A stretch of DNA of 64,000 bases from Pseudomonadota bacterium. Lineage in GTDB: Bacteria > Pseudomonadota > Gammaproteobacteria > Burkholderiales > Rhodocyclaceae. A model generated the notes under the pieces. It saw nothing but the letters and a program-made list of their open reading frames with translations. It made no database searches and had not been told where the DNA came from. Every line of letters begins with the position of its first letter. Within the stretch, counting starts at the first letter, position 1. The stretch is from contig JAKJFA010000001.1 of assembly GCA_022705135.1 (NCBI GenBank), positions 13,300 through 77,299 of the forward strand, read 5' to 3'. Shown here piece by piece: positions 3,145-64,000 of this stretch. The position numbers and the translations under genes are program-made.

Positions 3145-3182
3145 TCAGAGATTTCTCCTGACAGAACCACCGGTGGTCGGCA

Positions 3183-7200: not shown

Positions 7201-7829
7201 GTCACCGCTTCTTCAACCCGGAGATACCCTTGGGCGAGCGCCTGCCGATCATCGCGCTCCATGTCCAAGCCCAGTTGCCCTGGAAACAGGTCTCTGGTGT
7301 GTTTGTCTTTCCAGTCGCTGGTCCCTATCATGGCTTCCAGCATCGGATTGACATAGAGCACCCGGCCATCGCTGTCTTTGATGTAGGTCAGCGCAGGAAT
7401 CACCTCCATGAAGCGCGCGAATTGACTCTCGGCGTCACGTTTCTGGCCACGCGCTTCTTTTTCCGCCAGAGCGCGCCGCACAGTTGCCGGCAAGCGTGCC
7501 AATCCCTCCTTGAGAACGTAGTCGGTCGCGCCTTGCCTCAACACCTCAACCGCCCAATCCTCACCCATGGCGCCAGTGACAAAAATATAGGGCAAGTCCG
7601 GCGAACGTTCGCGCACGATCGATAATGCTTGCAAGCCATCAAATCCCGGCAGTTTGTAGTCGGCCAGGATCAGATCCGGGCGAAATTCTTCCAGCGCCGC
7701 CATGAAGGCCTGCCTGGTTTCAACGCGCAGCGACGAAAAGACCATGCCCGCTTTGCGCAACAAACGCTCGCTGAGCTCGGCGTCCGTCGGGCTATCCTCC
7801 AGCAGCAGAATGCGCAACGGGTCGCTCAT
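4203..7829 (-). CDS. REC - multiple PAS - GGDEF(GGDQF) - EAL - REC signalling protein (c-di-GMP turnover)
   Basis: 1208-aa ORF. N-terminal REC ([13 protein letters not shown]...[13 protein letters not shown]). Several PAS units each ending in [14 protein letters not shown] in the GGDEF position. EAL motifs [32 protein letters not shown]-terminal REC ([11 protein letters not shown]...[12 protein letters not shown]). ATGA overlap with the upstream gene. Confidence 0.9.
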
Positions 7830-14274: not shown

Positions 14275-14498
14275 GGGGTTTCCTTACAGGCTGCAAAACG
14301 GGAACAAGGGAAGCGTGGCCGGAAGGGACGCGGGCGAATTTTAACAGAAGCTCAGTACCCAAGAAGCTGAAAGAAAATTGTAGCGAGCGCAGCCAGGTTG
14401 GCCGCGCCCGGAACACAGCGACGAGACAGTACACGAAGTACGGCGAGGAGCGAGTACCGCGCAAGAGCAAGCTGGCAAGCGCAGTAAATTTTCGACAG

Positions 14499-14918
14499 CT
14501 TAAACAGGCTGCTGAAATACTCCACGGGGTTGCGGCGCAGGCTTTCCGGGATGGCTCGCGCAACGTGGCGCTTCGGTACGTGCGCAGTGAAGCGAGCCGT
14601 AGCAGCGCCATCCGCGTAAGCGCGAGCCCGTGTTCGCCTCCGCTGCCCGATCCCCCTGCGGGGGCCCCTCGGGTCGCGCTCCGGCGCTGCATGCACGAAA
14701 GGAAGCGAAGCCAATGGTCGATCCCCTTGGCGAGCTTCCTGACACAGCAGACCGCCCGGAAAGACGCGCCCCTCCGGGTTTGCGCGAAAAATGCCCATCT
14801 GCAGTGTTGCGCTCCTCGGCATCGTAGTCCCGGCTACGACCTTCGTCGCGCGTCGCGCATCTGTGCATTTTTCGTGTCAAACGCATTCTCCCGGCGAGTT
14901 TTTCAACAGCCTGTTAAC
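14499..14918. mobile_element. MITE-like non-autonomous element, copy A (420 bp, carries a ~136-bp internal extra block at 14555-14690)
   Basis: Imperfect terminal inverted repeats: CTTAAACAGGCTGCTGAAATACTCC... and ...GAGTTTTTCAACAGCCTGTTAAC. The interior is nearly identical to 59802-60085. The only ORFs are frame-independent junk shared by both copies. Confidence 0.7.
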
Positions 14919-21257: not shown

Positions 21258-21285
21258 GTTTTCCGATAATCGGAAAACCCTTTTT
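21258..21285 (+). terminator. Rho-independent terminator between convergent genes
   Basis: GTTTTCCGA-taa-TCGGAAAAC 9-bp stem followed by CCTTTTT. A second perfect 11-bp hairpin, GCGCGTTCCGG...CCGGAACGCGC, lies at 21181-21214. Confidence 0.55.
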
Positions 21286-24200
21286 CAGATGCTTTCGGCC
21301 GCTTTCCCGGCAGGTGCCACAAGGGGCAAAGACAGAATAAAAGCGGTGCCAACCCCGACCTCGCTTTCGACCTCAATGTTGCCACCCAGGGGGCCAGTGA
21401 CGGCGTTGTAAACGACACTCAGCCCCAGGCCGCTACCGCCCTGTCCGAGCTTGGTCGTAAAAAATGGGTCGAAAAGCTTGGGAATATGTTCTGGCGGTAT
21501 GCCCATGCCGTCGTCACGCACGGTGATTCTGACCCGATCCGCACCGCACCGTAATCCTTCCACGGTGATCTTGCCATACGGCCTGTCCTCGAAACCGTGA
21601 AGAATGGAATTGCTGATCAGATTGGTCAGAATCTGGCCCAGCGGGCCGGGGAAACTGTCCATGACAATACTTTCCGGGATATCGATTTCGACCGCATAGG
21701 GCGTTTTCTTCAATGTCGGGCCGAGTGTGACCATCAGTTCGTTGACCATGGCGTCGAGATTGAAGCACCGCCGTTCCGAACTGCTCTGGTCGACCGCAAC
21801 CTGCTTGAAGCTGCTGACCAGTTCGGCGACCCGTTGCAGATTGCGAATAACCAAATCACAGGCGTTGCTGGTATGACTGATATAATCTTCCAGCGTCGAG
21901 CGCTTGAGGCCAATCTGCAAGTCATGGGCTATTTCTTCAGTCTCATGCTGCAAGGTACTCTCAACCATCAAGCAATTGCCGATCGGCGTATTCAATTCGT
22001 GCGCCACACCGGCGACAAGCGAACCGAGCGCAGCCAGTTTTTCGCTGCGCAGCAGTTCATTTTGCGCCTTCTTCAGGTGATCCAGCGTCATCAAAAGCTC
22101 ATCGTTGGTATGCTGGATTTCTTCTTCCATGCGTTTCAGTGTCGAGATGTCCAGAAAAACGCTGACATAGCCACCCGACGGAAGCGGATTCAATCGCACA
22201 TCGAGGATGGTGCCACTCGGCATATGATGCTCGGCGAATATGGATTCCCGCGCCTGGAAAGGCTCGAGGGCTTTCCGGGTCAGTTCTTCCGGATCTCCCG
22301 GGCCATAATCGCCACGTGCCGCAAGAAGATAATACATATCCGCTATGGGCAGACCAGACTGGATGGTGCCTGGCGCAAGTTCCCAAAGCGACTCGGTGTT
22401 CGGAGTCCATAATTTGTAGCGGAGGTTTTCGTCCCAGATAATCATGCCGCCGGCCATGTTCTCGACACCGTCCTTCAGCAGCGTCGTCTTCTCGGCCAGT
22501 TCCGCTTCAAGGTGTTTCTTTTCAGTAATATCCTGGAAGACGCTGACGATGCCACCCGTAGGAATGGGGCCGCGTCGCACTTCGAGGATCATGCCACTGG
22601 GTAAAGACCGCTCCCGATAGATGGATTTTTTATCCAGCAAGGGTTGAAGCTCGCTTTGTACCAGCGTGTTGATGTCGCCCGGGCCAAAATCGCCGCGTTC
22701 GGCAAAAAAGTGCAGCACCTCCGAATAAGGTCTTCCGTTAAACAAAAAGCCCGGTGGAAGGTCAAACCATTCCTCTACCCGTTTCGTCCAGACCAGATAC
22801 CGCAACTCCTCGTCGAGCAGGACCATGCCACCCGGCATCGACTGGACCGCCGCATTGAGGAATTCCGTCACCTTTTTGAGTTCGGTCTCGCCACGCTTTC
22901 TTTCGGTAATATCCTGAAAAACGCTGACAATGGCGCCGGAAGGCAGGGGCCGACGCCAGACTTCCAGGATGGTGCCATTGGGTATCTTGCGCTCGCCATG
23001 CACCACCTGGCGCTCGCGTACCGGCCGGATTTGCTGTTCAACCAGCGTTTCAATGTCGCCTGGCCCGAAATCGCCACGCTCGGCAAAGTAGCGCAGCACC
23101 TCTTCATACGTCAGGCCGACCCGGATCATTTCCGGCGGCAAATCAAAAAAGGCGCCGACATTGTGTGAAAACAGGGTGTAGCGCAAATCCTGGTCAAAGA
23201 CGGCCATGCCGCCGGGCATGTGATCGATCGCAGCCTGCAACAGTTCCGATTTCTGGGACAGTTCAGCCTCGATGCGCTTTCTTTCAGTGATGTCCTGAAA
23301 AACGCTGACGACAGCACCGGAAGGCAGAGGGCGACGCCAGACCTCCAGGATGGTGCCATTGGGTATCTTGCGCTCGCTATGTACGATCGTGCGCTCGCGT
23401 ACCGGCCGGATTTGCTGTTCAACCAGCGTTTCAATGTCGCCCGGCCCGAAATCGCCACGCTCGGCAAAGTAGCGCAGCACCTCTTCATACGTCAGACCGA
23501 CCCGGATCATTTCCGGCGGCAAATCAAAAAAGGCGCCGACATTGTGTGAAAACAGGGTGTAATGCAAATCCTGGTCAAAGACGACCATGCCGCCGGGCAT
23601 GTGGTCGATGGCGGCCTGCAGCAGTTCCGATTTGTGCGACAGTTCGGCCTCGATGCGCTTTCTCTCGGTGATGTCTTCAACGAGCCAGATTGCGCCTTTT
23701 GACCAATCACCGGTATCGATCAGCGAACCGGACAATGCCACCCGAAGACAATGGCCATCCTTGTGCCGGAACTGATGTTCGCCGCGATAACGGACACCGG
23801 TGCGAATCATTCCGGCATAGGCATTGCCAACCTTCTGATGCTCAGCGTCCTCGGCATACAACTTTCGGGTGTCCTGTCCTTCCAATTCGCTACGTTCATA
23901 CCCCAGCATTTCTGCCAGCGCCGGGTTGACGTGCTTCAGGATGCGACCGCCTGCCCCTCCGGGTACGACGGTGCAAATTCCGGTCGAAACATTCGACAGA
24001 ATCAGCCCCAGTTCGACCGCTTGGGCTTCAAGTTCTCTATCGCGCTGTTTCCTGCCGGTAATGTCCGTATGAATGCAGACGTAGCGGCCCGCTTCCGATC
24101 GCGATGTCCTGGTCTCGTAATATCGGCCATCGGCAAGACAGCACTCCATTAGCCGGGGTGAATCCATCCGGGAAATTGATGCAAGCGTATCGCCTACGAA

Positions 24201-24443
24201 TTGATCGACGTCGGCCACTGGGCCATACCCCCCCCGTTCGGCCAAAAAGCGCAGCGCCAGACCGAATGCGGCGCCCTTTTGCAGCAGCTCGGCAGGTAAA
24301 TTGAAGATTTCTCGATAACGCTGGTTGCAAGCCACCAGCAACAAGCGCTCATCGTAGATGGATACGCCGAAACCGCCTTGCTGCATAACCTCCTGCATCA
24401 GGACAAAACTGAGGTCGCCATCAGAGGAATCTTCAGTCCGCAT
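21285..24443 (-). CDS. Multi-PAS sensor histidine kinase (soluble; six PAS-like modules + HisKA + HATPase_c)
   Basis: 1052 aa. Four consecutive 127-aa modules (residues 261-768), each ending VFQDITE/VFLDIS. H-box SLVAGVAHELNTPIGN. NLISNSILHG, DDGMGIP, GSGLGLS. Confidence 0.9.
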   Translation of the reverse strand: MRTEDSSDGDLSFVLMQEVMQQGGFGVSIYDERLLLVACNQRYREIFNLPAELLQKGAAFGLALRFLAERGGYGPVADVDQFVGDTLASISRMDSPRLMECCLADGRYYETRTSRSEAGRYVCIHTDITGRKQRDRELEAQAVELGLILSNVSTGICTVVPGGAGGRILKHVNPALAEMLGYERSELEGQDTRKLYAEDAEHQKVGNAYAGMIRTGVRYRGEHQFRHKDGHCLRVALSGSLIDTGDWSKGAIWLVEDITERKRIEAELSHKSELLQAAIDHMPGGMVVFDQDLHYTLFSHNVGAFFDLPPEMIRVGLTYEEVLRYFAERGDFGPGDIETLVEQQIRPVRERTIVHSERKIPNGTILEVWRRPLPSGAVVSVFQDITERKRIEAELSQKSELLQAAIDHMPGGMAVFDQDLRYTLFSHNVGAFFDLPPEMIRVGLTYEEVLRYFAERGDFGPGDIETLVEQQIRPVRERQVVHGERKIPNGTILEVWRRPLPSGAIVSVFQDITERKRGETELKKVTEFLNAAVQSMPGGMVLLDEELRYLVWTKRVEEWFDLPPGFLFNGRPYSEVLHFFAERGDFGPGDINTLVQSELQPLLDKKSIYRERSLPSGMILEVRRGPIPTGGIVSVFQDITEKKHLEAELAEKTTLLKDGVENMAGGMIIWDENLRYKLWTPNTESLWELAPGTIQSGLPIADMYYLLAARGDYGPGDPEELTRKALEPFQARESIFAEHHMPSGTILDVRLNPLPSGGYVSVFLDISTLKRMEEEIQHTNDELLMTLDHLKKAQNELLRSEKLAALGSLVAGVAHELNTPIGNCLMVESTLQHETEEIAHDLQIGLKRSTLEDYISHTSNACDLVIRNLQRVAELVSSFKQVAVDQSSSERRCFNLDAMVNELMVTLGPTLKKTPYAVEIDIPESIVMDSFPGPLGQILTNLISNSILHGFEDRPYGKITVEGLRCGADRVRITVRDDGMGIPPEHIPKLFDPFFTTKLGQGGSGLGLSVVYNAVTGPLGGNIEVESEVGVGTAFILSLPLVAPAGKAAESI
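22902..23663. repeat. Tandem duplication, 2 x 381 bp, inside the kinase gene
   Basis: Protein residues 261-387 versus 388-514 differ at 7 of 127 positions. Runs of more than 150 nt are almost identical (e.g. ACCGGCCGGATTTGCTGTTCAACCAGCGTTTCAATGTCGCC...). Off-frame ORFs 22868-23107, 23126-23488 and 23507-23710 repeat the same peptide. Confidence 0.9.
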
Positions 24444-52890: not shown

Positions 52891-54134
52891 GCCACCTTCT
52901 CCCAACCCGCCCAACGCAAATCGGCGGGTGTGCGAATGGGGCAAACCGGTAAGGCAAGGGCGGGCCAGGCCGGATCCGGTGTGCCGATCTGCAACAATAT
53001 GAGGTGATGGCGCCGATGCGCCAGTACCGCCAGCCGTTCCAGCAACGCGGTATCCAGGTGGTGCAGCAAGACCATCAGCGTGGCGCGGCCGGAGAGATGC
53101 CGCTCTGCCGGCTCCAGCATCGCCGCCAGCGGCAGGGCGGGGCGACGCGTGGCGGCGGCCAGCGCTTCCAGGATCAGCAACAGTTGGTGACGCCGGGCGG
53201 CGGGTGCAAGCAACACCGGATCGTCGTTGCGGCCATCCGTCCCTGTCAGGTACAGGCCGACGGGGATATCCGCCGCCAGTGCCTGTCTGGCCAGGGAGCC
53301 GGCCGTACTCAAGGCCAGTTCGAACGCTTTCGGCGCACCGGCGAAGCTTTCCGCCGCCACAAACAAAGCTAACTCAGCACTCACTGTCGGCTCGAACACC
53401 TTGACTTGCATGTGCCGCTGGCGGGCCGTGGCCTTCCAATGCACATGACGCAGGCTGTCCCCGGCGACAAAAGGACGAATGCCAAAAGGCCGACAGGGAT
53501 CCACCGCCAAGCTCCAGTGCGAGCGGCTATCCCCGACCGGCTGGCGCCGCAGGGCAGGCAGCAGATTGACCGGATACAGTCTGGGATAGACCAGTAACTC
53601 GGCGGGCGGCGTGCAGGGTTGGCGGCGGCGGTAGAAGCCGAAGAGATCGCTGGCCGACAGCGCCACCGGCGGCAGGCGGTAAAACCCCCGCCGCTCGGCC
53701 CGGAAGCCACAGTGCCAGACCAGTTCGGCGCCACCAGCCAGCAGGGCACAGTCGCCTGACTCCTCGGGTCCGGCCGTCAGCCCCGGCGGCAATTGCCAGT
53801 ATCCGCGCAGATCGACCACCGGCAGCGGCTTGCGGTTGTGCAGCGTGATGGAAAAAGTGGCCGATTCGTCACAAAAGAGGCGAAGGGCAGGGGTGTCCGC
53901 CTGGACGCGCAAACGCCAGAAGGAACACCGAGCCCAGGCAAACGACAGCAGGGCGACGACCAGCAATACTGCCGGCAACGCCGCCAGGCCGGGTTGATCG
54001 AACCAGATCGCGGCCAACCCGCCGGTCGCCAGCAACAGCAGGCCGGCAGGGTGGAAAAGGAAGCCGCCGGCCTCGGTCGCCGCCGGATATTTGAGGGCGG
54101 ACGCGGCCCGGCTTCGGGCTTGTACTACGGGCAT
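52887..54134 (-). CDS. DUF58 domain protein (MoxR-associated)
   Basis: 415 aa. IRPFVAGDSLRHVHWKATARQRHMQVKVFEP is the DUF58 hallmark. First gene of the DUF58-DUF4129-MoxR unit. Confidence 0.8.
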   Translation of the reverse strand: MPVVQARSRAASALKYPAATEAGGFLFHPAGLLLLATGGLAAIWFDQPGLAALPAVLLVVALLSFAWARCSFWRLRVQADTPALRLFCDESATFSITLHNRKPLPVVDLRGYWQLPPGLTAGPEESGDCALLAGGAELVWHCGFRAERRGFYRLPPVALSASDLFGFYRRRQPCTPPAELLVYPRLYPVNLLPALRRQPVGDSRSHWSLAVDPCRPFGIRPFVAGDSLRHVHWKATARQRHMQVKVFEPTVSAELALFVAAESFAGAPKAFELALSTAGSLARQALAADIPVGLYLTGTDGRNDDPVLLAPAARRHQLLLILEALAAATRRPALPLAAMLEPAERHLSGRATLMVLLHHLDTALLERLAVLAHRRHHLILLQIGTPDPAWPALALPVCPIRTPADLRWAGWEKVA

Positions 54135-54179
54135 AGCCCCGAGTTTCGCCGACTCCGGCGCCCCGGGTCAAGCCCGTGG

Positions 54180-54722
54180 TCAGAAAGCGTAGAGGAGACG
54201 AAGCGCGACGAAATCGACGCCGCTGTTCGGCTTTTTGATGCCGCCGTTCGAGTAGTGCTGGATCTTCAGGCCAAGATCGACCCGGTCCCAACGGTAACCT
54301 ACACCGATATGATCGCCAAACTGGAAGCGCGTCGACAGCCTGTCGCCGTTGTTGTTGTAGAGTTCGGAGAGGACATGCGCGCCGATGCCGAATTCGCCGT
54401 AGGGGCCACGCTGATCGTGGCGTTCCCAGCGGAACACCGGCGTGATGCCGATCGCCGCCAGAGACTGGCTGGCGTGCAGACCGCGATGGCGCGTCCCGTG
54501 CCAGAAGGAAGCGGAGAAATCCCAGTAGCCGCCGATCTGCGTCTCGCTGAAACGCCAAAGCGGCGCTTTCCAGTTGGATTGCAGGCCCAGGCGCACCATG
54601 CTGACCTTGCTGCCGGCGCCATACTCAATCGAAGCGCTATCGAACAGCGAACCGGCAGCACTTGCGGAACCCGCAAGCAGCACAGCAACGGCACCCAACA
54701 AAAATGACAAAACACGACGCAT
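54180..54722 (-). CDS. Outer-membrane lipid A deacylase PagL-like / acyloxyacyl hydrolase
   Basis: Start trimmed to ATG 54722 with AAGGAG 7 nt upstream. Signal peptide MRRVLSFLLGAVAVLLAGSASA. HYSNGG (His/Ser pair) and C-terminal LLYAF beta-barrel signature. Confidence 0.7.
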   Translation of the reverse strand: MRRVLSFLLGAVAVLLAGSASAAGSLFDSASIEYGAGSKVSMVRLGLQSNWKAPLWRFSETQIGGYWDFSASFWHGTRHRGLHASQSLAAIGITPVFRWERHDQRGPYGEFGIGAHVLSELYNNNGDRLSTRFQFGDHIGVGYRWDRVDLGLKIQHYSNGGIKKPNSGVDFVALRLLYAF

Positions 54723-54941
54723 GCGATGGCTCCTTATATCTGTTCTCCGCACAGCTGCGCCAGTGTACTTCTTCTTTTCCGGATTTGCAGCCAGCACGCT
54801 GCAACGCGAGGGGCACGCCAGCCAATTTGATACAAAAAACCCACAGTCCGTCCGGCCCGTCAGCGGCCCCGCATTGTGACGGAGATGTGACACTCCAGGG
54901 CCAAATGTGGTAGCTTTGCGGCCTTCGTTTTCCCGAGATCG

Positions 54942-56519
54942 ATGATGAAACTGCTGGACATTGAGGACATTGAAAAGGCGACCAAGCGTGGCCGCCGCGA
55001 AAGTTTCCGGCTCGGCGTTGCCCTCATCTTCATCGTCGGCGTCATGCTCTATGCTGGCGTCGCAGTTGCCACAAGCGGCACCGGCGCCGTCCTGCTCGTG
55101 GCTGCCGCCATGATCGGCGGCTACATGGCGATGAACATCGGCGCCAACGACGTCGCCAACAATGTCGGTCCGGCTGTGGGCGCCAAGGCCATCACCATGA
55201 CCGGCGCCCTCATCATCGCGGCGATTTGTGAAGTGGCCGGCGCCCTCATTGCCGGCGGCGATGTCGTTTCCACCATCCAGGGCGGCATCATCAAGCCGGA
55301 TGCGATCGCCGACGCACAAACCTTTATCTGGATCATGCTGGCCGCCCTGCTCGCCGGCGCCCTCTGGCTCAATATCGCCACCGCCTTCGGCGCGCCGGTT
55401 TCGACCACGCATTCGATCGTCGGCGCCGTGCTGGGCTCCGGACTCGCCGCTGGCGGCCTGTCCGCCGCCAACTGGGGCGTTCTGGGCAACATCGCCCTGA
55501 GCTGGGTCATTTCGCCCCTGATGGGCGGGTTAATCGCCGCAGCCTTCCTCTACTTCATCAAACACACCATCACCTACCGCGAAGACATGTCGGCCGCAGC
55601 GCGGCGCGTGGTCCCCTGGCTGGTCGGTCTGATGGCCTTCGCCTTCGGCACCTATCTCGTGCTCAAGGGACTGTGCCGGGTCTGGAGCATCGGTTTCCCC
55701 CTGGCGTGCGCCATCGGCGCCGCCTGTGGCCTGCTTGCCTATTGCCTGGTGCGCTGGCGCATCAATCAGGACAGCCTGCCCGTCGGCAACGACAAGAGCA
55801 GCATCAACGCCTTATTCACCGTGCCACTCATCGGCGCGGCCGCCCTTCTGAGCTTTGCCCACGGCGCTAACGATGTCGCCAATGCCGTCGGCCCGTTGGC
55901 GGCCATCACCGCTACCGTCAAGGGCGCGGTTCTGGACGGAAACGCCCCGATCCCGATCTGGGTGATGCTGGTCGGAGGACTCGGAATCGCCCTGGGGCTG
56001 GGGCTCTATGGGCCGAAACTCATCCGGACGGTGGGCAACGAAATTACCGAGCTCGACCAGATGCGCGCCTTCTGCATCGCCATGGCGGCTGCCGTTACCG
56101 TCATTCTCGCTTCACAGCTCGGCCTGCCGGTCAGTTCGACCCACATCGCCGTGGGCGGAGTCTTTGGCGTCGGCTTTCTGCGCGAATTCCTCAAAACCAA
56201 TTACTCCCGCATGCTCGAAGACATCCGCCTGCACCATGCCGGCACCGACAAGGAAGAGGTCGACGATTTCCTCAGGGACTTCGAGCAAGCTCCAGCCACC
56301 ACCAAACGCCTGATGCTCAAGCAGCTCAAAAACAAGCGGCTTCCCCACCCCGACCTGTCCAAGCAAGAGCGCAGCGACCTGAAGCGAGCCTACAAGCACG
56401 AACTGGTCAAGCGTTCGGCGCTCAACCGCATCATCACCGCCTGGGTGGTGACCGTTCCCATTTCCGGAGGCATCGCGGCCTTATGCTTCTTTGTCGTCCG
56501 CGGCATGATGCTGCCCTGA
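54942..56519 (+). CDS. pit: Inorganic phosphate transporter, PiT (PHO4) family
   Basis: 525 aa. Duplicated GANDVANNVGP / GANDVANAVGP motifs. Many TM segments. Confidence 0.9.
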   Translation: MMKLLDIEDIEKATKRGRRESFRLGVALIFIVGVMLYAGVAVATSGTGAVLLVAAAMIGGYMAMNIGANDVANNVGPAVGAKAITMTGALIIAAICEVAGALIAGGDVVSTIQGGIIKPDAIADAQTFIWIMLAALLAGALWLNIATAFGAPVSTTHSIVGAVLGSGLAAGGLSAANWGVLGNIALSWVISPLMGGLIAAAFLYFIKHTITYREDMSAAARRVVPWLVGLMAFAFGTYLVLKGLCRVWSIGFPLACAIGAACGLLAYCLVRWRINQDSLPVGNDKSSINALFTVPLIGAAALLSFAHGANDVANAVGPLAAITATVKGAVLDGNAPIPIWVMLVGGLGIALGLGLYGPKLIRTVGNEITELDQMRAFCIAMAAAVTVILASQLGLPVSSTHIAVGGVFGVGFLREFLKTNYSRMLEDIRLHHAGTDKEEVDDFLRDFEQAPATTKRLMLKQLKNKRLPHPDLSKQERSDLKRAYKHELVKRSALNRIITAWVVTVPISGGIAALCFFVVRGMMLP

Positions 56520-56543
56520 ACCCCTCTTTCAGGAGCATGGGGT

Positions 56544-57482
56544 TCAGTACAGGCTTTCCTTGCCGATCCCGCCCCGCTTGATGATGCGGCGCAGGCGCTC
56601 CAGCCCTTCGAGCTGGATTTGGCGGACGCGCTCGCGCGTCAGGCCCAGATCGCCGGCAATCGCGTCCAGCGTTTCGGCCTCCACACCGTGCAAGCCGTAG
56701 CGTCGCCGGATCACTTCCCGCTGACGCTCACTCAACTGCGCCATCCACTCGTCGACCAGCCTGCCCAACTCAACCGTCTGCAAGAGCGCGGCCGGGTCGG
56801 CGCCATTGTCGTCGGCAATGACATCAACGGTCGAATGGTTGGGATCAATCTCGAGCGGCGCATCGAGTGAGGCGATGTGCTCGTTGAGGACGAGGATGCG
56901 GCGTATATCGGCCGCGGGCCGGTCAATCAGCGCGGCGATGCGTTCAACCGTGGTATCGCGTTCGTCGGCCGCCTCCAGGTGGCGAATGGCGCGCAACACC
57001 ACATTGATTTCCTTGACCACATGCACCGGCAAACGAATGGTGCGCGACTGGTTCATAATCGCCCGCTCGATGCTCTGCCGGATCCACCAGGTGGCATAGG
57101 TGGAAAAGCGGAACCCGCGTTCGGGGTCGAATTTTTCCAAGGCGTGAATCAGGCCGAGATTGCCCTCTTCGATCAGGTCCAGCAGGGGAACGCCGCGGTT
57201 GAGGTAGTGCTTGGCGATATTGACCACCAGCCGCAGGTTGTGCTCGATCATTTTCTGGCGGGCGGAAAAGTCGCCGGCCCGCAGCCGGCGCGCCGTTTCC
57301 ACTTCCTCCTCGGGCTTGAGCAGCGGCTTGGCGCCGATTTCGTTGAGATAGACCTGAGTGACGTCCTCGAAAAATTCGATCTCCGAAATCAGTCCCTCGG
57401 CCTCCGTCACCGACTCGATTTCGGACTCTTCGACCTCTTCCGGTTCGAAGCACTCGTCTTCGCGGGTTTCCTCGCCGCTCAT
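56544..57482 (-). CDS. rpoS: RNA polymerase sigma factor RpoS
   Basis: 312 aa. Region 2 ([32 protein letters not shown]) and region 4 ([16 protein letters not shown]). Lies immediately downstream of nlpD, as in the canonical surE-pcm-nlpD-rpoS arrangement. Confidence 0.9.
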
Positions 57483-57484
57483 CG

Positions 57485-58357
57485 TCAGCGCTGCGGCAAA
57501 TAAATGGCCGGGTCGATCGGTTTGCCCTGGTGGCGAATCTCAAAGTGCAATTTGACGCCGGTATCGCTGTCGCTCTTGCCCATTTCCGCCACTTTCTGGC
57601 CCTTGCTCACCATTTGTTTTTCGGCCACCAGGATTTTGCGATTGTGGGCATAGACCGAGATGAAGCCGCTGGCGTGACCAATAATCAGCAGGTTGCCATA
57701 CCCTTTCTGCAGACCGACAAAAAAGACCTTGCCCTCGGCTGCTGCCGTTATTGCATCCCCTTCCCTGCCGGCGAAATCGATGCCCTTGTTGCTGTTCTCG
57801 CCGAAGGACGAAAGGATATTGCCGGTCGATGGCCAGGCCCAGGCGATCGCCAGCCCGGCCTCAGTCGCGCCGGCCGGCCGGGCCGCAGCGGGCACGGACG
57901 CCGGAGCGGCCGTTTCAGCAGGCTTTTGCAGGTTTTCCCAGGCAGCGTCGGAATAGGGTTCCTTGTTGACCTTCGGTTCGCGCTTCACGACATCACCGAC
58001 TGGCGGCGGCGCTGTGCCCAGGGGGCGGCTCTCGACTGGGGCAGCGCCCTGGACCGGTTGCGTCACCGCCACCGCCGAATCCGGACTCCCCGGCGGCGTC
58101 AGGCGAAGAACCTGGCCCTCCTTCAAAGTGGCGGGATCAGTGATGTTGTTCCAGGCCATCAAATCCCGTTGGGCAATGCCGCGCTCCAGGGAGATGCGGT
58201 AGAGATTCTCGCCCCGCTTCACCGTATAGGTGGCGCCAACGGCGGCCGAGGACTTGGTGGAAACTGCCGTCGTCCGGTCGACGACGGGCGCAGGCGCCTG
58301 CGTGGCGCAAGCCGCCACCAACAGGGACAAAACAAGAATGGGAAGAGTGACTTTCAT
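57485..58357 (-). CDS. nlpD: Murein hydrolase activator NlpD (LysM + M23 peptidase lipoprotein)
   Basis: Lipobox LLVAAC. Lys[16 protein letters not shown]23 domain [12 protein letters not shown]...GKLHFEIR. Confidence 0.9.
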
Positions 58358-59010
58358 TCGATTCCTGACAGAAGTGGAACAAAACGCACGGCATCAAGCC
58401 TCGACTCAACAAAACCTTGCGGTGTCTGTTCGATCAACAAAAGGTACTGTTCAACAGCGCCAACCGGCAAAATCATCCGGCCCGCCGGCGCCAGTTGCTG
58501 CAACAACCCCTGAGGAACGCGGGGAGCCGCGGCGGCGACGATAATACTGTCATAAGGCGCCGCTTCCGGCAAGCCAAAATTGCCATCGGCGAGCTTGAGA
58601 CGGACATTGAATTGCTGCAACTGGCGCAGATTGACCTTGGCTTTTTCCAGCAGGGGCTTGAGGCGCTCGACCGCATACACCTCCTTGGTCAACTGCGCCA
58701 ACACGGCCGCCTGATAGCCACAGCCGGCGCCGATTTCAAGGGTTTTGCCCAAGCCCTTGCGCCCTGCCAGCAGCGCCTCGATCATGCGCGCCACGACGTA
58801 AGGCTGCGAAATGGTCTGCCCCATGCCCAACGGCAGCGCCGTATCGTCGTAGGCACGCGAAGCCAGGGCTTCCTCGACGAAGACATGGCGCGGCACCGCC
58901 GCCATCGCCGCCAGCACCGCTTCATCGCGGATGCCTTGCTCGCGCAGGCGCTCGATCATGCGGACGCGCGTGCGCTGCGAGGTCATGCCGATGCCGGACA
59001 AAGCGCCCAT
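58354..59010 (-). CDS. pcm: Protein-L-isoaspartate O-methyltransferase
   Basis: TISQPYVVARM, LEIGAGCGYQAAVLA. The start is taken at ATG 59010 (3 nt after the surE stop). GTG 59025 and a later ATG are alternatives. Confidence 0.9.
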   Translation of the reverse strand: MGALSGIGMTSQRTRVRMIERLREQGIRDEAVLAAMAAVPRHVFVEEALASRAYDDTALPLGMGQTISQPYVVARMIEALLAGRKGLGKTLEIGAGCGYQAAVLAQLTKEVYAVERLKPLLEKAKVNLRQLQQFNVRLKLADGNFGLPEAAPYDSIIVAAAAPRVPQGLLQQLAPAGRMILPVGAVEQYLLLIEQTPQGFVESRLDAVRFVPLLSGIE

Positions 59011-59012
59011 GC

Positions 59013-59753
59013 TCACGCCATCCACTCCGTCAATACCGGAATCTGCGCATAGTGCGTCAGGTCGATTTGCAAGGGCGTGATCGAAACCATGTCGCGCTCA
59101 AGGGCGTGGAAATCGGTTCCGCGGCCGGAATCCTGCGCCGCGCCAGCCGCGCCCACCCAATACACCGTCTCGTTGCGTGGCGTCACCATCTTCACCACCG
59201 ATTCCGCTTTATGGCGCTTGCCGAGCCGGGTCACCTCCATGCCCGCCAGGCGGTCATGCGGAATATCCGGAACATTGACATTGAGCAGCACCGGCTGGCG
59301 AATGGGCTGCCGGAGGAAGCGCTCAACCAGGCTGCGCGCCACCCGGCCCGCTGTCTCGTAATGCAGCGCCTCGAAACTGCCGAGCGAAACCGCCAGCGAC
59401 GGAATACCGAGCAGAAAGCCTTCCATGGCGGCGGCCACCGTTCCGGAATAAATGGTGTCATCCCCCATGTTGGGCCCCTGATTGATGCCGGAGACAATCA
59501 TGTCGGGCAGGTCGTCGAAGAGGCCGGTCACGGCCAGATGCACGCAATCCGTTGGCGTGCCATTGACGAAGAAAAAGTCATTGGCCGCCTTGCGCACTGT
59601 CAGCGGCCGATCCAGAGTCAGGGAGTTGCTGGCGCCGCTCTGGTTGCGCTCGGGCGCCACCACGACGATTTCCGCCAGTTCCGCCAGCGCGTCCGCCAGA
59701 ACCTGCAGGCCGGGGGCCAGATAACCATCGTCGTTGCTTACCAGAATACGCAT
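59013..59753 (-). CDS. surE: 5'/3'-nucleotidase SurE
   Basis: Start trimmed to ATG 59753 ([11 protein letters not shown]...). [24 protein letters not shown]. Confidence 0.95.
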
Positions 59754-59801
59754 AAACTGCCTGCCTTGGGCCAAAATCAGCGCCGTATTTTAGCAGACTG
59801 G

Positions 59802-60085
59802 CTTAACAGGCTGTTGAAGAACTCCACGGGGTTGCGGCGCAGGCTTTCCGGGATGGGATGCACGAAAGGATGCGAAGCTAATGGTCGATCCCCTTGGCGA
59901 GCTTCCTGACAAAGCAGACCGCACGGAAAGACGCGCCCCTCCGGGTTTGCGCGAAAAATGCCCATCTGCATTGTTGCGCTCCTCGGCATCGTAGTCCCGG
60001 CTACGACCTTCGTCGCGCGTCGCGCATCTGAGCATTTTTCGTGTCAAACGCATTCTCCCGGCGAGTTTTTCAATAGCCTGTTAAC
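59802..60085. mobile_element. MITE-like non-autonomous element, copy B (284 bp)
   Basis: TIRs CTTAACAGGCTGTTGAAGAACTCC... and ...GAGTTTTTCAATAGCCTGTTAAC. The interior matches copy A at 14499-14918 minus the 136-bp block. It abuts an extra half-TIR, giving the 16-bp palindrome AGCCTGTTAACAGGCT at 60075-60090. Confidence 0.7.
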
Positions 60086-60211
60086 AGGCTGTTAAAGAAG
60101 CGCATTCCGGCCAAAGCCGGAATCCAGAAGAGAACACACTGGACCCCGGCTTGGCCATCTCTTGAAACGCCACTTTGCAATTGCCAAGGTGACGAAACCA
60201 TCCGCGTTTCG

Positions 60212-60796
60212 CTAAACGCTCAATCCATCGAGCGGGCTGATGACGCCGCGTCCGCCCCGGTTGAGCACATGCGTATAGATCATTGTGGTGGATACATCGG
60301 AATGGCCGAGCAATTCCTGCACGGTTCGGATGTCGTATCCCCCTTCCAGCAGATGCGTGGCGAAAGAATGGCGCAAGGTATGCGGCGTGGCCGGCTTGAC
60401 CAGACCGGCGTCGCGCACGGCCTGGCGAATCGCCCGCTGCACCGCCTGATCTTGCAGATGATGGCGCCGTACAGCGCCGCTGCGCGGGTCCTAGGACAGA
60501 TGTATGGAAGGAAAGACGTATTGCCAAGCCCATTCCCGTTCGGCGTTAGGATACTTGCGCGCCAGCGCGTAAGGCAGATACACCGCGCCGTTCCCGGCGG
60601 CCAGATCGGAATCATGCAGCGCCTTGACTTTGAGCAGATGATCTTTCAATGGTGTGCGCAAAGCAGCCGGCAGCATCGTGACGCGATCCTTGAAGCCCTT
60701 GCCATCGCGCACCAGAATCTGGTGCCCCGCGAAATCGACATCTTTGACCCGCAGCCGCAAGGCTTCCATGATGCGCAAGCCGGAACCATAGAGCAG
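60212..60796 (-). pseudogene. intI: Integron integrase intI, 5'-truncated (starts near the first catalytic Arg) and interrupted by an in-frame TAG at 60491-60493
   Basis: Translation reads [22 protein letters not shown]...[11 protein letters not shown]...[50 protein letters not shown]...[54 protein letters not shown]. It is collinear with IntI1 as I remember it, including the IntI-specific ALxRKYPxA...W...F insertion. ORFs 60491-60928 and 60212-60442 are in the same frame (48 nt apart). Confidence 0.85.
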
Positions 60797-60928
60797 ATTG
60801 GCGATCAGTTCCAGTAACTGGGTGCGGGCGACTTTCGGCTTCACCAACACCGCCTTGCCACGCTCATCTACCCCGTGAATTGCAAATACGTTCTTGGCGA
60901 GATCGATTCCAACAGTGATAATGCTCAT
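60797..60928 (-). mobile_element. Remnant of an IS110-family (DEDD) transposase gene: first ~44 codons only, fused in frame to the intI remnant
   Basis: [44 protein letters not shown] matches the highly conserved IS110-family N-terminus (VGIDLAKxxFxxHGVDxxGK). The rest of the transposase is absent. The junction position is +/- a few codons. Confidence 0.7.
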
Positions 60929-61041
60929 GGACTTCCCCTTTCGATGGTTTCAAATGGACGACTTCGACATCACCATTTTGGCACTCAACTGCCGTTCGCG
61001 GCTTCCGCCGCAGCCTCGGGACGGGGAAGTCCCTTTCATTC

Positions 61042-61048
61042 GTTATGC
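61042..61048 (+). other. Integron core site GTTATGC marking the 5' boundary of cassette 1 (crossover between G61042 and T61043)
   Basis: TTATGC is the exact complement of GCATAA in the R'' box of the same cassette's attC (62668-62674), as expected for a cassette excised and integrated at G/TT. Confidence 0.7.
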
Positions 61049-61071
61049 CCCATTCCGGGAGTCTCACTGCC

Positions 61072-62673
61072 ATGACTGAAAGGCGCACGTTAACCCTTCC
61101 GCGCATCAACGGTGCAACCGAATCCATAGAGACAACACAAAGCCTGTTATTCATCGGTGCGAATGGTTCCGGTAAGACACGCCTCGGCACATGGATTGAA
61201 ATCACTTCGCCTCAGCGCGAATTAGTTCATCGAATTTCCGCCCAAAAGTCGTTGTCGATGCCAGATTCGACGACACCAGTTTCAGTCGAGATTGCTGAGA
61301 AGAGCCTCTTATTTGGAAACCCGGACTGGAACTATCAACACAAACTCCATAAGTGGGGCAAGAAGCCAGCCACGATGCTTCTTAGCGATTACGAGAAGCT
61401 GATGGTCTTTTTGTTTTCAGATGAAACTGAAGAGAATGCGAAATTCAAGATTGCAGTTAAGGCCTGCACAACACGCATTGAGCCGCCAGTAACAAAAATA
61501 GACCTGGTCAAAGAGATATGGGAGAAGATACTTCCGCACCGCGAACTTGTAATCGGTGGCTTACGAGTTCAAACAAGAGTCAAGGGGCAATCCGAGAAGA
61601 TTTACAAATCATCGGAAATGAGCGACGGCGAGCGGGTTATTTTCTATTTAATTGGGCAATGTCTGGCAGCTCCAAAGAATGGAATCATCGTTATCGATGA
61701 ACCGGAGTTGCATCTTCACAAGTCAGTACAGGCACCTCTTTGGGCGGAAATTGAGAGGCTTAGAAGTGATTGCCTCTTTGTATATCTGACACACGATGTA
61801 GATTTCGCTGCCTCACAGGAAGGCGCAGCACGAATTTGGCTGAAATCTTTTGATGGCACATCGTGGGATTGGGAACCCATTAGTGCCGACGAAAATCTTC
61901 CGGACGATCTGTTGCTCGAAGTCCTGGGGAGCAGAAAACCAGTTGTATTCGTTGAAGGAGATAACGGAAGCTACGATGTCTCTTTGTATCGCGAGATGCT
62001 TCCTGGTTTTCTCGTTGTGGCAAGAGGCAGTTGCTCGCAAGTAATCGTCTCGGTCAAAGCACTGAAGGCCAATGCGCAGCTACATCACCTTAGTGTGTAT
62101 GGCATTGTGGATCGAGATCGAAGGGTACCTGAAGAAATTGCTGCCTTAGAAGCGGACTCGATCTTCGTCCTCACAGTTGCAGAAGTCGAAAATCTTTTCT
62201 GTACGGAGGAGGTAATAAAAATTGCCAGCAAAAGGCTTGCGCGCGATCCGACTGCTGACTTCCATAGAGTTTCTGATGAGATATTCAAGCGGCTTCAACA
62301 AGAGCTAGACATACAGGTTTCTCTGCGCGTCGCAAGTGAAATCAAGTTCCAGCTGAGCAAGTTTGACCAAAACATCAAAGGGGAGAGCGCGCTATCCGGC
62401 GCGCTAAATGCGCTTGCGCAAAGCATCGATGTGAAACAACTTTATACGACATGCATGAACACATTCTCGGAGATCATCGCCAATCGTGACTACGAAAAGT
62501 TACTGAGCACGTACAACCGCAAGTCATTGGCTAATCAGGCTAGCGGAGCGCTCGGATTGAAGAGCGGCGAACTGCCTGAATTGATTCTCAGACTAGCGAG
62601 AGGCGACTCCCGAGACGAGATTCGAGCAGCGTTGAAGAAGTACTTTGGAGGCTTTGGTGCTCATGTGGCATAA
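61072..62673 (+). CDS. Cassette 1 protein: ABC-type (AAA_21/AAA_15-like) ATPase fused to a C-terminal DUF4435/Toprim-like domain
   Basis: ATG 61072 (GGGAG 10 nt upstream); an alternative ATG 61045 lies inside the core site. Walker A FIGANGSGKT, Q-loop SAQKS, signature-like MSDGER, Walker B IIVIDEPELHLH, H-loop YLTHD. Then VVFVEGDNGSYDVSLY, GIVDRDRR and AEVENLF, typical of DUF4435. AT-richer than the flanks. Confidence 0.8.
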   Translation: MTERRTLTLPRINGATESIETTQSLLFIGANGSGKTRLGTWIEITSPQRELVHRISAQKSLSMPDSTTPVSVEIAEKSLLFGNPDWNYQHKLHKWGKKPATMLLSDYEKLMVFLFSDETEENAKFKIAVKACTTRIEPPVTKIDLVKEIWEKILPHRELVIGGLRVQTRVKGQSEKIYKSSEMSDGERVIFYLIGQCLAAPKNGIIVIDEPELHLHKSVQAPLWAEIERLRSDCLFVYLTHDVDFAASQEGAARIWLKSFDGTSWDWEPISADENLPDDLLLEVLGSRKPVVFVEGDNGSYDVSLYREMLPGFLVVARGSCSQVIVSVKALKANAQLHHLSVYGIVDRDRRVPEEIAALEADSIFVLTVAEVENLFCTEEVIKIASKRLARDPTADFHRVSDEIFKRLQQELDIQVSLRVASEIKFQLSKFDQNIKGESALSGALNALAQSIDVKQLYTTCMNTFSEIIANRDYEKLLSTYNRKSLANQASGALGLKSGELPELILRLARGDSRDEIRAALKKYFGGFGAHVA

Positions 62674-62736
62674 CCCTGCGGTCCACCGGACGCTGCGCGA
62701 TAAAGCCGCGCAGCGCCGGTGACCTCCACGTTGGCC
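62668..62736 (+). other. attC recombination site of cassette 1 (69 bp)
   Basis: R'' GCATAAC ... imperfect palindrome CACCGGACGCTGCGCG-ataaagc-CGCGCAGCGCCGGTG ... R' GTTGGCC. Overlaps the stop codon of the cassette ORF. Confidence 0.8.
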
Positions 62737-62764
62737 GTCATGAGGAAGCTCGTAAGGAGTCATC

Positions 62765-63847
62765 TTGGATAAACGCTATCAAGTATTCGTAAGTTCCTCC
62801 TATGAAGACCTTCGGGAGGAAAGGCAAGAAGTTATGCATGCTCTTCTCGAACTGGATTGCATCCCTTCTGGCATGGAGTTGTTTCCGGCTGCTGATGAAG
62901 ATCAGTGGACGTTGATCAAAAAGGTCATTTCCGAGTGCGACTACTACCTGATTATTTCCGGCGGACGGTACGGATCGATTGGGCCATCTGGACTGAGTTA
63001 CACGGAAATGGAATACAGGCACGCCCTAGATATTGGGAAGCCGATAATCGGGTTCCTTCATAAGGATCCAATGCAACTTCCGGCCGGGCGTTGCGAGCAA
63101 ACCGAAGATGGAAAGAAGAAACTTCTTGCACTGAGAGAGTTGGTACAAAAGAAAATGTGCAAGTTCTGGACAACGCCTGCCGAATTAGGATCTGTTGCTA
63201 GTCGCAGCCTAGTTCGATTAATCAAGACAACGCCGGCGGTGGGATGGATAAGAACCAATCAAGCGATGGACTCTGTAGCTGCCGGCGAGATTCTGAAGTT
63301 GAAAAAGACTATCGATGACCTGCAAACGAAGCTCCAAGAAGCGCGGCTTTCCGGGCCCAGTGGGAGCGAAAGTTTGTCTCAGGACGAAGACGAATTTGCC
63401 ATTCATTTCAAGTTTGAGACGAGAGATGCATCGAGGGAAGAATGGACTTGGGACTACGAGGTCGATTTAACATGGAATGAAATCTTTTACGACCTCGGCC
63501 CCGTGATGCTTAACGAAGCTTCTGATATTGATGTGCGTACTGCACTCAATCAAACCGTTCGAGAGCGTTCAAGAAAGTTGCGTGGTGCAGACAAGAATCT
63601 GAAAGGACATACGGCGTTGTCAAGAACGTTCACGGTTTCGGAACATGATTTTCAAACTGTCAAAATTCAGCTGATTGCCTTGGGCTTGATTGCAAAAAGC
63701 CAAAAGGCACGTAGCGTCAAAGATTCGCGGACCTTTTGGGCACTCACTCCTTATGGCGATCAGGTGCTGACCACACTGAGAGCAATTAGACGCGGTCCCG
63801 GACTTGAAGCGCCCGGCCCACAAGAGGACGCTGCGGAGGGTGAATGA
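62765..63847 (+). CDS. Cassette 2 protein: N-terminal DUF4062 domain, coiled coil, C-terminal possible winged-helix region
   Basis: TTG 62765 with perfect AAGGAG 5 nt upstream. YQVFVSSSYEDLREERQEVMHALLELDCIPSGMELFPA...CDYYLIISGGRYGS is the DUF4062 signature. ILKLKKTIDDLQTKLQEARL is the coiled coil. The C-terminal ...FWALTPYGDQVL is wHTH-like. Confidence 0.8.
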   Translation: MDKRYQVFVSSSYEDLREERQEVMHALLELDCIPSGMELFPAADEDQWTLIKKVISECDYYLIISGGRYGSIGPSGLSYTEMEYRHALDIGKPIIGFLHKDPMQLPAGRCEQTEDGKKKLLALRELVQKKMCKFWTTPAELGSVASRSLVRLIKTTPAVGWIRTNQAMDSVAAGEILKLKKTIDDLQTKLQEARLSGPSGSESLSQDEDEFAIHFKFETRDASREEWTWDYEVDLTWNEIFYDLGPVMLNEASDIDVRTALNQTVRERSRKLRGADKNLKGHTALSRTFTVSEHDFQTVKIQLIALGLIAKSQKARSVKDSRTFWALTPYGDQVLTTLRAIRRGPGLEAPGPQEDAAEGE

Positions 63848-63848
63848 C

Positions 63849-63915
63849 GGCCAACCACTCATTCCACCGGACCTGCGCGAAAAGCCGCGCAGGCCGGTGA
63901 ATTCAAACGTTGGCG
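63849..63915 (+). other. attC recombination site of cassette 2 (67 bp); cassette 3 begins at 63910 and runs off the window
   Basis: R'' GGCCAAC ... CACCGGACCTGCGCG-aaaagc-CGCGCAGGCCGGTG ... R' GTTGGCG. The R'' is the exact complement of the GTTGGCC at the cassette 1/2 junction. Confidence 0.85.
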
Positions 63916-64000
63916 TCTTCACGCAGCCATGGAATATTTCGCGGCAGTAGTCCCTAAATCAGAATCTGAACTTGTGTCTGTGTTCCCCTTTAGCCCTTTC

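Follow-up and report, generated by a model that had tools for sequence, protein, structure and literature searches.

Chromosomal integrons whose integrase gene, intI, is truncated or absent are common, for example in Xanthomonas (PMC12444791), and a preprint (10.1101/2024.07.02.601686) describes defense systems, above all streamlined single-gene ones, as enriched in integron cassettes. Sedentary chromosomal integrons with anti-phage defense cassettes have been reported by Darracq et al. 2025 in Science (the same preprint) and by Getz et al. 2025 and Kieffer et al. 2025 (cited in PMC12444791). Insertion sequences (ISs) also act on integrons; ISPa21 and ISPst6, members of the IS1111-attC group, insert near one end of the attC recombination site, antisense to the array (PMC3001079; PMC11187229). 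PARIS is a defense system that comprises AriA, an ABC ATPase, and AriB, a DUF4435/Toprim nuclease (Rousset 2022; Burman 2024, PMC11464382), and its literature acknowledges fused AriA-AriB proteins (PMC11464382). Proteins that combine DUF4062 with an auxiliary domain are single-gene, NAD+-depleting abortive-infection systems (bioRxiv 10.64898/2026.05.01.722283 and 10.64898/2026.06.25.731849), and KpSwz is a Swarozyc defense NADase with solved structures. Here we analyze a stretch of 64,000 nt from a Pseudomonadota bacterium of the Rhodocyclaceae (assembly GCA_022705135.1, contig JAKJFA010000001.1, positions 13,300 to 77,299 of the forward strand), which we call the window and whose coordinates are used throughout. 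The region between surE and clpB at its right end is, with high probability, an inactivated chromosomal integron that was disabled by an IS and has retained two intact cassettes of anti-phage type.

Like the sedentary chromosomal integrons that carry defense cassettes, this locus has an array that diverges from intI and consists of promoterless cassettes, each with a single open reading frame (ORF) and ending in an attC site. Both cassettes are compact and hold one gene, which fits the pattern of the streamlined defense cassettes described in the preprint. Whereas some Vibrio arrays run to hundreds of cassettes, only two are present here, and in contrast to the sedentary integrons the platform is dead: attI and the cassette promoter (Pc) are missing, intI is a pseudogene, and the host is an uncultured betaproteobacterium known from a digester metagenome-assembled genome (MAG). 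The section of that preprint consulted here does not name PARIS or Swarozyc when it lists the systems that integrons carry most often. Decayed intI genes, defense cassettes, and damage to integrons by attC-targeting IS1111 elements are all of kinds already published; the type of the locus is clear but expected, an example of an element kind already known, and its interest is modest. New here is that two genes, one of Swarozyc type and one a compact fusion of PARIS type, move between genomes as integron cassettes whose attC sites are conserved.

Two attC Sites and the Cassettes That They Close

A sequence-only reading of the window had proposed that a site of 67-69 bp with attC architecture follows each of two plus-strand genes, and the cores, the palindrome, and the unpaired bases all lie where that reading had placed them. 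The first site, attC1, occupies 62668-62736 (69 nt, plus strand), with the R'' core GCATAAC at 62668-62674 and the R' core GTTGGCC at 62730-62736. The second, attC2, is the last of the array and occupies 63849-63915 (67 nt, plus strand), with R'' GGCCAAC at 63849-63855 and R' GTTGGCG at 63909-63915. The two are identical in 79% of alignment columns and have in common the palindrome CCACCGGAC(G)CTGCGCG / CGCGCAG(C)GCCGGTG. The bottom strand is the predicted folded, recombinogenic strand of attC1, and folding of both bottom strands gives hairpins with an unpaired T and an unpaired G on the R''-side arm, at -26.8 kcal/mol for attC1 and -24.1 kcal/mol for attC2 (z = -5.3 and -5.5). These extrahelical bases, which the sequence-only reading had suggested looking for, are the complements of A62690 (T) and C62683/62684 (G) in attC1 and of A63871 (T) and C63864/63865 (G) in attC2. 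When positions are counted from the outer R'' end, an origin that is our own reading of the Nivina 2016 numbering (PMC5027507), the bottom strand of each site presents a 7-nt R'', a 5-nt unpaired spacer, G16, T23, and a 6-bp stem between G16 and T23. The published geometry, as in attCaadA7, includes G16, T23/24, a 6-bp spacing, a spacer of 5-6 nt, and a length of 57-141 nt (Nivina et al. 2016, PMC5027507). The R'' of attC1 deviates from RYYYAAC at one position.

Rfam, which lacks an attC family, returned no match for 56-64 kb at a threshold of E <= 1, and we used two surrogate covariance models. Model R1 was built from six bottom-strand sites of the same type, two from the window and four located behind homologous genes elsewhere; model R2 was built only from foreign sites that lie beside intI genes in other genomes and had been found by R1. 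For sequence beyond the window we used contig MWBA01000044.1 (L001 below; GCA_002068855.1, Betaproteobacteria bacterium ADurb.Bin341, a digester MAG that also includes the window), which is 18 kb long, differs from the window by 1 mismatch over 53662-64000, and runs 7.3 kb past the window end. In the window plus this extension R1 returned attC1 (91.2 bits, E 4e-23) and attC2 (79.4 bits, E 1e-19) and no other site. R2 likewise recovered attC1 (74.8 bits, E 3.5e-16) and attC2 (63.4 bits, E 2.8e-13), with no further match in the window or in L001. R1 was also applied to 80 intI loci from GTDB genomes that had been retrieved with the intI remnant of the window as the query. It found 122 unique sites, 120 of which lie upstream of intI on the intI strand, where upstream sequence makes up only 36% of the flanking DNA. 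In a small alignment of same-type sites, 88.6% of the cells pair, compared with 28-46% when the partners are slid, and double-sided changes occur at three pairs; a Nitrosomonas copy (L011) has a compensatory stem change, from CTGCGCG/CGCGCAG to CTGTGC/GCACAG. The two attC sites, of 69 and 67 nt, are genuine, and both cassettes are real.

Cassette 1 extends from 61043 to 62730 (1688 nt, plus strand) and cassette 2 from 62731 to 63909 (1179 nt, plus strand), each with one ORF, in agreement with the sizes given in the sequence-only reading. Cassette 1 opens with a leader of 29 nt, and the stop codon of its gene overlaps with its attC. It begins after the G of the heptamer GTTATGC (61042-61048; G/TTATGC), which together with the preceding C (61041-61048, plus strand) is the surviving R' core of an attC that was hit by an IS. 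The left R' of each cassette is complementary to its own R'' at 7 of 7 positions, so that the pairing of cores across boundaries claimed in the sequence-only reading holds for both. Homologous units elsewhere break at the same G/TT, in copies free of the IS as well as in foreign arrays. The nucleotide similarity of three units that contain the cassette 1 gene, which is related to ariA and ariB and is called AriAB here, starts exactly at 61041 and ends at 62732 (L008), 62722 (L011), and 62680 (L013). The attC-like sequences upstream of the AriAB copies differ and end in C-GTCATGC, C-GTTATGC, or C-GTTATAC, with C-GTTGTAC in L009. Downstream of the AriAB homologues stands the same attC type, partly degenerate in some, with an R'' GCATAAC that overlaps the stop codon. 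The units that contain the cassette 2 gene (Swz) match the window at 62729-63913 in L016 and at 62727-63911 in L017. In both contigs the unit stands behind another attC, one that ends in GTTGGCC, and ahead of another cassette than in the window, whereas the attC2-type site behind Swz is conserved; R2 detects four co-oriented attC sites in L016 and three in L017. The similarity breakpoints therefore fall at 61041, 62722-62732, 62727-62729, and 63911-63913 across five unrelated contigs, with different neighbors each time, and both cassettes are discrete mobile units bounded at G/TT. A GTTAACC at 61088 was also considered as the R' of the IS-split attC and was rejected, being inside the conserved AriAB coding region, with cassette similarity beginning at 61041.

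The homologous units differ in their settings. Positions 1-3036 of L016, an ENA metagenome scaffold, hold a four-attC array that encodes the Swz homologue, a 263-aa protein without a Pfam family, and a protein with a TIR_2 domain, which suggests a run of defense-type cassettes. In L011 (Nitrosomonas sp. MAG, JAGPDE010000045.1), a lone AriAB cassette lies at 5865-7561, flanked by the genes for ribonucleotide reductase (nrdB) and fumarase; the 13.5 kb examined contain no intI. This cassette has GTTATGC at its 5' end, its attC combines the compensatory stem changes with an R' that has degenerated to ATAAGAT, and its features suggest insertion at a secondary site followed by fixation. In L015 a Swz homologue with 77% identity is found at 2982-4020; its neighbors are recQ-like and lipase/ABC genes, and no attC was detected there. 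Only its coding region resembles the window, so the Swz gene also exists outside cassette form. When AriAB and Swz were sought in the 80 related intI loci, none was found save one weak DUF4062 match.

Both cassettes point away from the intI remnant and have a GC content of 0.49-0.50, compared with 0.597 in the rest of the window, where the lowest other 1.2-kb segment is at 0.517; the divergent orientation and AT-richness noted in the sequence-only reading are thus confirmed. That reading had also placed the start of a third cassette at 63910 and expected a longer array, a claim that L001 does not bear out. The genes and sequence of L001 show that attC2 is followed at the array end (63910-64000) by an 81-nt spacer and then by the 3' end of clpB (minus strand, stop at ~63991-63993). 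The clpB gene encodes 860 aa on the minus strand and is followed by other housekeeping genes, and neither R1 nor R2 finds an attC in the 7.3 kb beyond the window. The TTGGCG at the array end belongs to the last R' as its outer half and does not start a cassette 3; if cassettes were inserted at attI as the standard model has it, these bases would derive from the original attI-side sequence. The accompanying forecast of a next attC beginning with CGCCAAC has no site to which it could apply, since the array ends at attC2 beside clpB.

Predicted Products of the Two Cassettes

Cassette 1 carries an ariAB-like gene at 61072-62673 (plus strand) whose 533-aa product would fuse an ABC-type ATPase to a DUF4435/Toprim domain. 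Its motifs include a Walker A (GANGSGKT), a Walker B (IIVIDEPE), and Toprim-like acidic motifs (VVFVEGDNGS and IVDRD). The PADLOC AriAB profile PDLC02982 matches with E 1.5e-201, aligning residues 11-535 (525 residues) of the 542-aa ORF that starts at 61045 with profile positions 24-565 of 570, while the separate AriB and AriA profiles match with 8e-16 and 3e-14. Among Pfam families DUF4435 (4.7e-18), AAA_21 (2.8e-10), and AAA_15 match. Many homologues with 67-90% identity, most of them 533 aa long, occur across widely different taxa, among them Telluria, Nitrosomonas, Thiorhodovibrio, Vibrio, Salinicola, and Pseudoalteromonas. We assign the product to the PARIS type from the PADLOC and Pfam profiles, and its mechanism would be that of PARIS. 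It has the same domain content as PARIS, here in one polypeptide, and is much shorter than separate AriA plus AriB (~55 + 35 kDa).

Cassette 2 carries a Swarozyc-type gene at 62765-63847 (plus strand; 360 aa, TTG start) behind an AAGGAG ribosome-binding site, and its product is predicted to have an N-terminal DUF4062 TIR-like NADase domain and an auxiliary domain. Pfam DUF4062 matches with E 5.3e-28. A phmmer search against the PDB retrieved KpSwz (10wc, 11cq, and 11cv) with E 3.8e-52, residues 1-340 aligning with residues 2-321 of the 326-residue chain, and the product appears to be a full-length homologue of KpSwz (Swarozyc) that includes the auxiliary C-terminal domain. Its E81 aligns with the catalytic Glu in the FTEKAF of KpSwz; this Glu would be E97 in a numbering that has the deposited chain begin at residue 16, an offset that we take from the KpSwz 16-C construct. 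Cassette 2 resembles Swarozyc and Evangelion in being a single gene that is spread horizontally, in keeping the catalytic Glu, and in its full-length homology to KpSwz. It differs from both in that the gene is packaged with its own attC; a text-term search of the two 2026 preprints returned no mention of integrons, cassettes, or attC. For both cassettes, homology points to a putative anti-phage function.

The ORF leaders measure 29 nt in cassette 1 and 34 nt in cassette 2, with the Shine-Dalgarno-like GGGAG and AAGGAG, respectively, and are too short to hold a cassette-internal promoter ahead of either ORF. Expression of the cassette genes would have to come from read-through out of the IS and intI remnant or from promoters that escape recognition.

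Loss of the Integron Platform

The locus is a decayed integron rather than a complete one. Its intI pseudogene, at 60212-60792 (minus strand), comprises the C-terminal ~190 codons and keeps the HxxR/Y catalytic motifs, while the first ~120-130 codons are gone; the integron-specific additional segment is present although the gene is a pseudogene. NCBIfam TIGR02249 matches two intI fragments (profile positions 118-224, E 3.1e-44, 151.6 bits; positions 242-315, E 2.4e-39, 135.6 bits), which Pfam Phage_integrase also matches, and the remnant is 64-82% identical to the intI of the 80 other genomes. Its reading frame is continuous, and the translation and ORF list place an in-frame TAG at 60491-60493 (minus strand; …FPSIHLS(stop)DPRSG…). 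With the 5' loss and the TAG, intI is doubly inactivated. Between intI and cassette 1 there is an IS remnant only, with neither attI nor Pc left, as the sequence-only reading had stated. The fusion of the intI pseudogene to an IS, the IS1111-type terminus that abuts the heptamer at 61042, and the anti-phage families of the cassette genes are points that the earlier reading did not contain.

The remnant belongs to the IS1111 family and occupies 60793-61040 (248 nt, minus strand). It consists of the non-coding left end (60929-61040, 112 nt) and the first ~45 codons of a DEDD transposase (60793-60928), and it is joined in frame to intI by a deletion whose junction can be located within ~6 nt. The transposase N-terminus is matched by NF033542 (profile positions 1-56), and in nucleotide sequence the 248-nt segment shows 70-78% identity with IS1492, ISPsy16, and further copies of the IS110 family. 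A left-end subterminal repeat, GGGACTTCCCC, lies at 61023-61033 (minus strand) and is followed by a 7-nt extension, AATGAAA, that brings the IS terminus to 61040. The matching right-end repeat ACGGGGAAGCCC is found in metagenomic copies and in intact relatives, which carry the subterminal pair GGGACTTCCCC...GGGGAAGCCC; such a pair is typical of IS1111-type elements (PMC11187229). Directly after the terminus come C (61041) and GTTATGC, and the transposase runs antisense to the cassettes.

We asked what lies beside other copies of this IS by scanning metagenomes with the exact left-end 20-mer, which occurs in at least 120 contigs; 80 of these were retrieved (L101-L180), and 78 flanks could be scored. 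The flank starts with C in 77 of 78 cases, continues with GTT in 67, and reads as the full GTTRRRY in 46. The consensus is C-GTTAGGC, with the variants GTTAGAC, GTTGGGC, and GTTATGC; since the GTTRRRY flank varies from copy to copy, the heptamer stems from the target rather than from the IS, and it follows the R' consensus of attC. R2 found 91 attC sites in 45 of the 80 retrieved contigs, every one of them (91/91) oriented to the IS as in the window. For 19 copies, mostly ~1.47-1.53 kb long, the right end could be located as well, and the two flanks were joined to rebuild the target. Many of these joined flanks restore a canonical attC hairpin that is split just before CGTTRRRY, and the rebuilt targets of L136 and L150 share the central palindrome of the attC sites in the window. 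All the reconstructed copies also have a constant CTA at the right-end flank before the target CGTT (TAG in IS orientation), while IS1492-type relatives have TAGTAC. The right extension of IS1111 elements is usually quoted as 3 nt; here it may be longer than that, or a short constant motif derived from the target may be involved.

Directly beside C-GTTAAGC, 2 nt ahead of the ATG of a GrpB-family gene, the finished plasmid pACDW039_1 of Acidovorax sp. DW039 (L099, 1919-2535) has a footprint of 30 nt from the same IS left end; R2 finds the attC of that gene. The footprint is an independent example of the arrangement with the IS at R'. Degenerate footprints of such elements have reportedly been seen at array ends. 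Compared with the IS1111-attC group (ISPst6, ISPa21, ISKpn4, and ISPa25; Tetu & Holmes 2008; Post & Hall 2009; Siddiquee et al. 2024, PMC11187229), the remnant is alike in its subterminal repeat, its 7-nt left extension, and its DEDD transposase, and it sits at the same attC position in the same antisense orientation as ISPa21 and ISPst6 (PMC3001079). The difference is that only a 248-nt left-end footprint, fused to intI, remains. IS1492 and ISPsy16 are its nearest named relatives by DNA similarity. At the IS1492-type plasmid loci neither R1 nor R2 detected a credible attC, the sole match being weak and partial, in L100, and the plasmid copies of these relatives are therefore not attC-associated. 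A similarity search showed no likeness of the remnant to the copies on enterobacterial plasmids.

The simplest history of the locus, in which IS insertion is followed by deletion, would start from an integron integrase that formerly acquired promoterless cassettes at attI through recombination, at G/TT, of the bottom strand of each attC in its folded form. Next, the attC ahead of the present cassette 1 would have received an attC-targeting IS1111-type element, oriented antisense to the array, at a point 1 nt into the R' core. A subsequent deletion, spanning transposase codon ~45 to intI codon ~120-130, would have removed the remainder of the IS, the attC body, any integrase-proximal cassettes, attI, Pc, and the 5' part of intI. 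Insertion at R' followed by deletion would thus explain how attI and Pc were lost. With the in-frame TAG additionally gained by intI, two structurally intact cassettes, each with a complete attC, would have been left frozen in place. An integrase supplied in trans could presumably still excise or capture both.

The deletion also seems to have made an in-frame chimeric ORF at 60491-60928 (minus strand), whose 145 aa combine ~45 residues of the transposase N-terminus with ~100 residues of the integrase. The one promoter-like match in this stretch, at 60894-60922, is on the plus strand, opposite to the ORF. The ORF carries a Phage_integrase gene annotation in the public record and is probably meaningless.

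Alternative Explanations

The palindromes could in principle be generic repetitive extragenic palindromes, or terminators, behind two horizontally acquired genes and unrelated to integron recombination. They are GC-rich hairpins directly behind stop codons, and Rfam has no family that matches them. The motif occurs at two places only in the 64 kb, both beside the intI remnant, and matches with three mismatches number 6 versus 5.4 expected, which is chance level; within the window it is not the scattered repeat that the sequence-only reading had named as a possible refutation. No T-tract follows the hairpins, and a terminator scan does not flag them. The placement of 120 of 122 model hits upstream of intI in the expected orientation, with a model seeded from these very palindromes, the complementary cores across cassette boundaries, and the joint movement of gene and site with breakpoints at G/TT all run counter to the idea, which we regard as extremely improbable. 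Scarcely any credence is due to a functional integron with a longer array, in which a third cassette would run from 63910 past the window end. The last R', GTTGGCG, does look like an ordinary boundary within an array, with 91 nt from there to the window end, but past attC2 L001 has the opposite-strand clpB and housekeeping genes with no attC, intI is truncated and contains a stop codon, and attI is absent. The same verdict falls on the idea that the GTTATGC at 61042 belongs to the IS, as terminal bases or target flank, that its match to R'' is a coincidence, and that the left boundary of cassette 1 is lost to view. Other copies of the IS family have similar flanks at this position, namely GCTTAGCG, ACTTAACG, and GCTTACCG. 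Against it stand the variation of the flank as GTTRRRY among the 78 metagenomic copies with an identical left end, and the AriAB cassettes free of the IS, which bear the same or nearly the same heptamer at equal distance from the ATG and whose similarity begins at 61041.

The fusion of IS to intI, or the whole juxtaposition, might instead be a chimera of metagenome assembly, the true genome having an intact integron or the cassettes coming from another organism. The source is a MAG, repeats of the IS type are typical places for misjoins, and the GC content of the cassettes differs from that of the surroundings. However, the junction is in frame and lies inside sequence that is unique on both sides, and the same sequence is shared by the 18-kb contig L001 and the window, the latter apparently part of another, longer contig. 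The normal outcome of misassembly at an IS is a broken contig and not a 248-nt footprint, low GC is normal for integron cassettes, and a comparable footprint stands at a cassette start in the finished plasmid of Acidovorax sp. DW039. We judge a chimera to be very improbable.

Several observations nevertheless weigh against an inactivated, IS-disabled integron with two anti-phage-type cassettes. The genome being a MAG, the junction of IS and intI could in principle be an assembly join, and the two deposited contigs in which it is identical probably share reads. The attC covariance models are surrogates seeded from the window's own sites and not the model of IntegronFinder. A search for surE, pcm, nlpD, rpoS, or clpB near intI in the 80 related loci found none of them; none of these loci shares the surE/clpB location, and no ancestral or intact version of this integron emerged. 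As to the cassette 1 product, a PDB sequence search that extended to E <= 10 gave no significant match and no entry at E < 0.1, the solved E. coli AriA and AriB chains included. A confident AlphaFold2 model of the protein (mean predicted local distance difference test score, pLDDT, 83.7) was matched by Foldseek about equally to GajA, PtuA, retron ATPases, SMC/Rad50 heads, and an AriB chain, with GajA and PtuA ranked above AriB 8v47_H (TMt 0.41). The structural matches are generic to ABC-ATPase/Toprim defense proteins, and the fold search does not separate the product from Gabija GajA, OLD, and PtuA-like proteins. Finally, a promoter scan was at chance level and gave no credible promoter for the cassettes; the only upstream candidate, at 60894-60922 (plus strand), is followed by an IS hairpin and a T-rich stretch before cassette 1. 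With no credible promoter and such a stretch in the way, the cassette genes may be silent.

Implications

That the IS breakpoint lies exactly at the known attC target position would make this locus a case of one-step loss of attI, Pc, and intI with survival of the cassettes, and it illustrates the loss of the platform at single-nucleotide resolution. Both surviving cassettes match one-gene anti-phage systems, which supports the view of integrons as reservoirs of compact defense. The DUF4062 (Swarozyc/Evangelion) family has been described only in the 2026 preprints mentioned above. The conserved gene-plus-attC units offer defined minimal constructs for two proteins, the fused PARIS variant of 533 aa and the Swarozyc homologue from the environment. 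A wider proposal, to which we give an even chance, is that Swarozyc-type NADases and compact fused PARIS genes circulate among environmental Proteobacteria as bona fide cassettes with a conserved attC each, and that an abundant IS1111 lineage (at least 120 metagenome contigs; nearest to IS1492/ISPsy16) can kill an integron platform by R'-adjacent insertion and deletions, leaving a fixed, domesticated mini defense island. None of this overturns current understanding.

Other Features of the Window

A repeat of ~290 nt occurs at 59796-60085 and again at 14494-14918, the two copies being 95% identical over 239 nt, with the inverted termini TTAACAGGCTGTTGAA...TTCAA(T/C)AGCCTGTTAA. The copy at 59796-60085, for which Rfam gave no match, has surE on one side and the 3' end of the intI remnant on the other, and the second copy has an extra insert of ~125 nt. 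The repeat looks like a miniature inverted-repeat transposable element. At 21285-24443 (minus strand), tandem repeats of 381 nt correspond to repeated PAS_7 domains in a 1052-aa sensor histidine kinase, an ordinary case of domain repetition.

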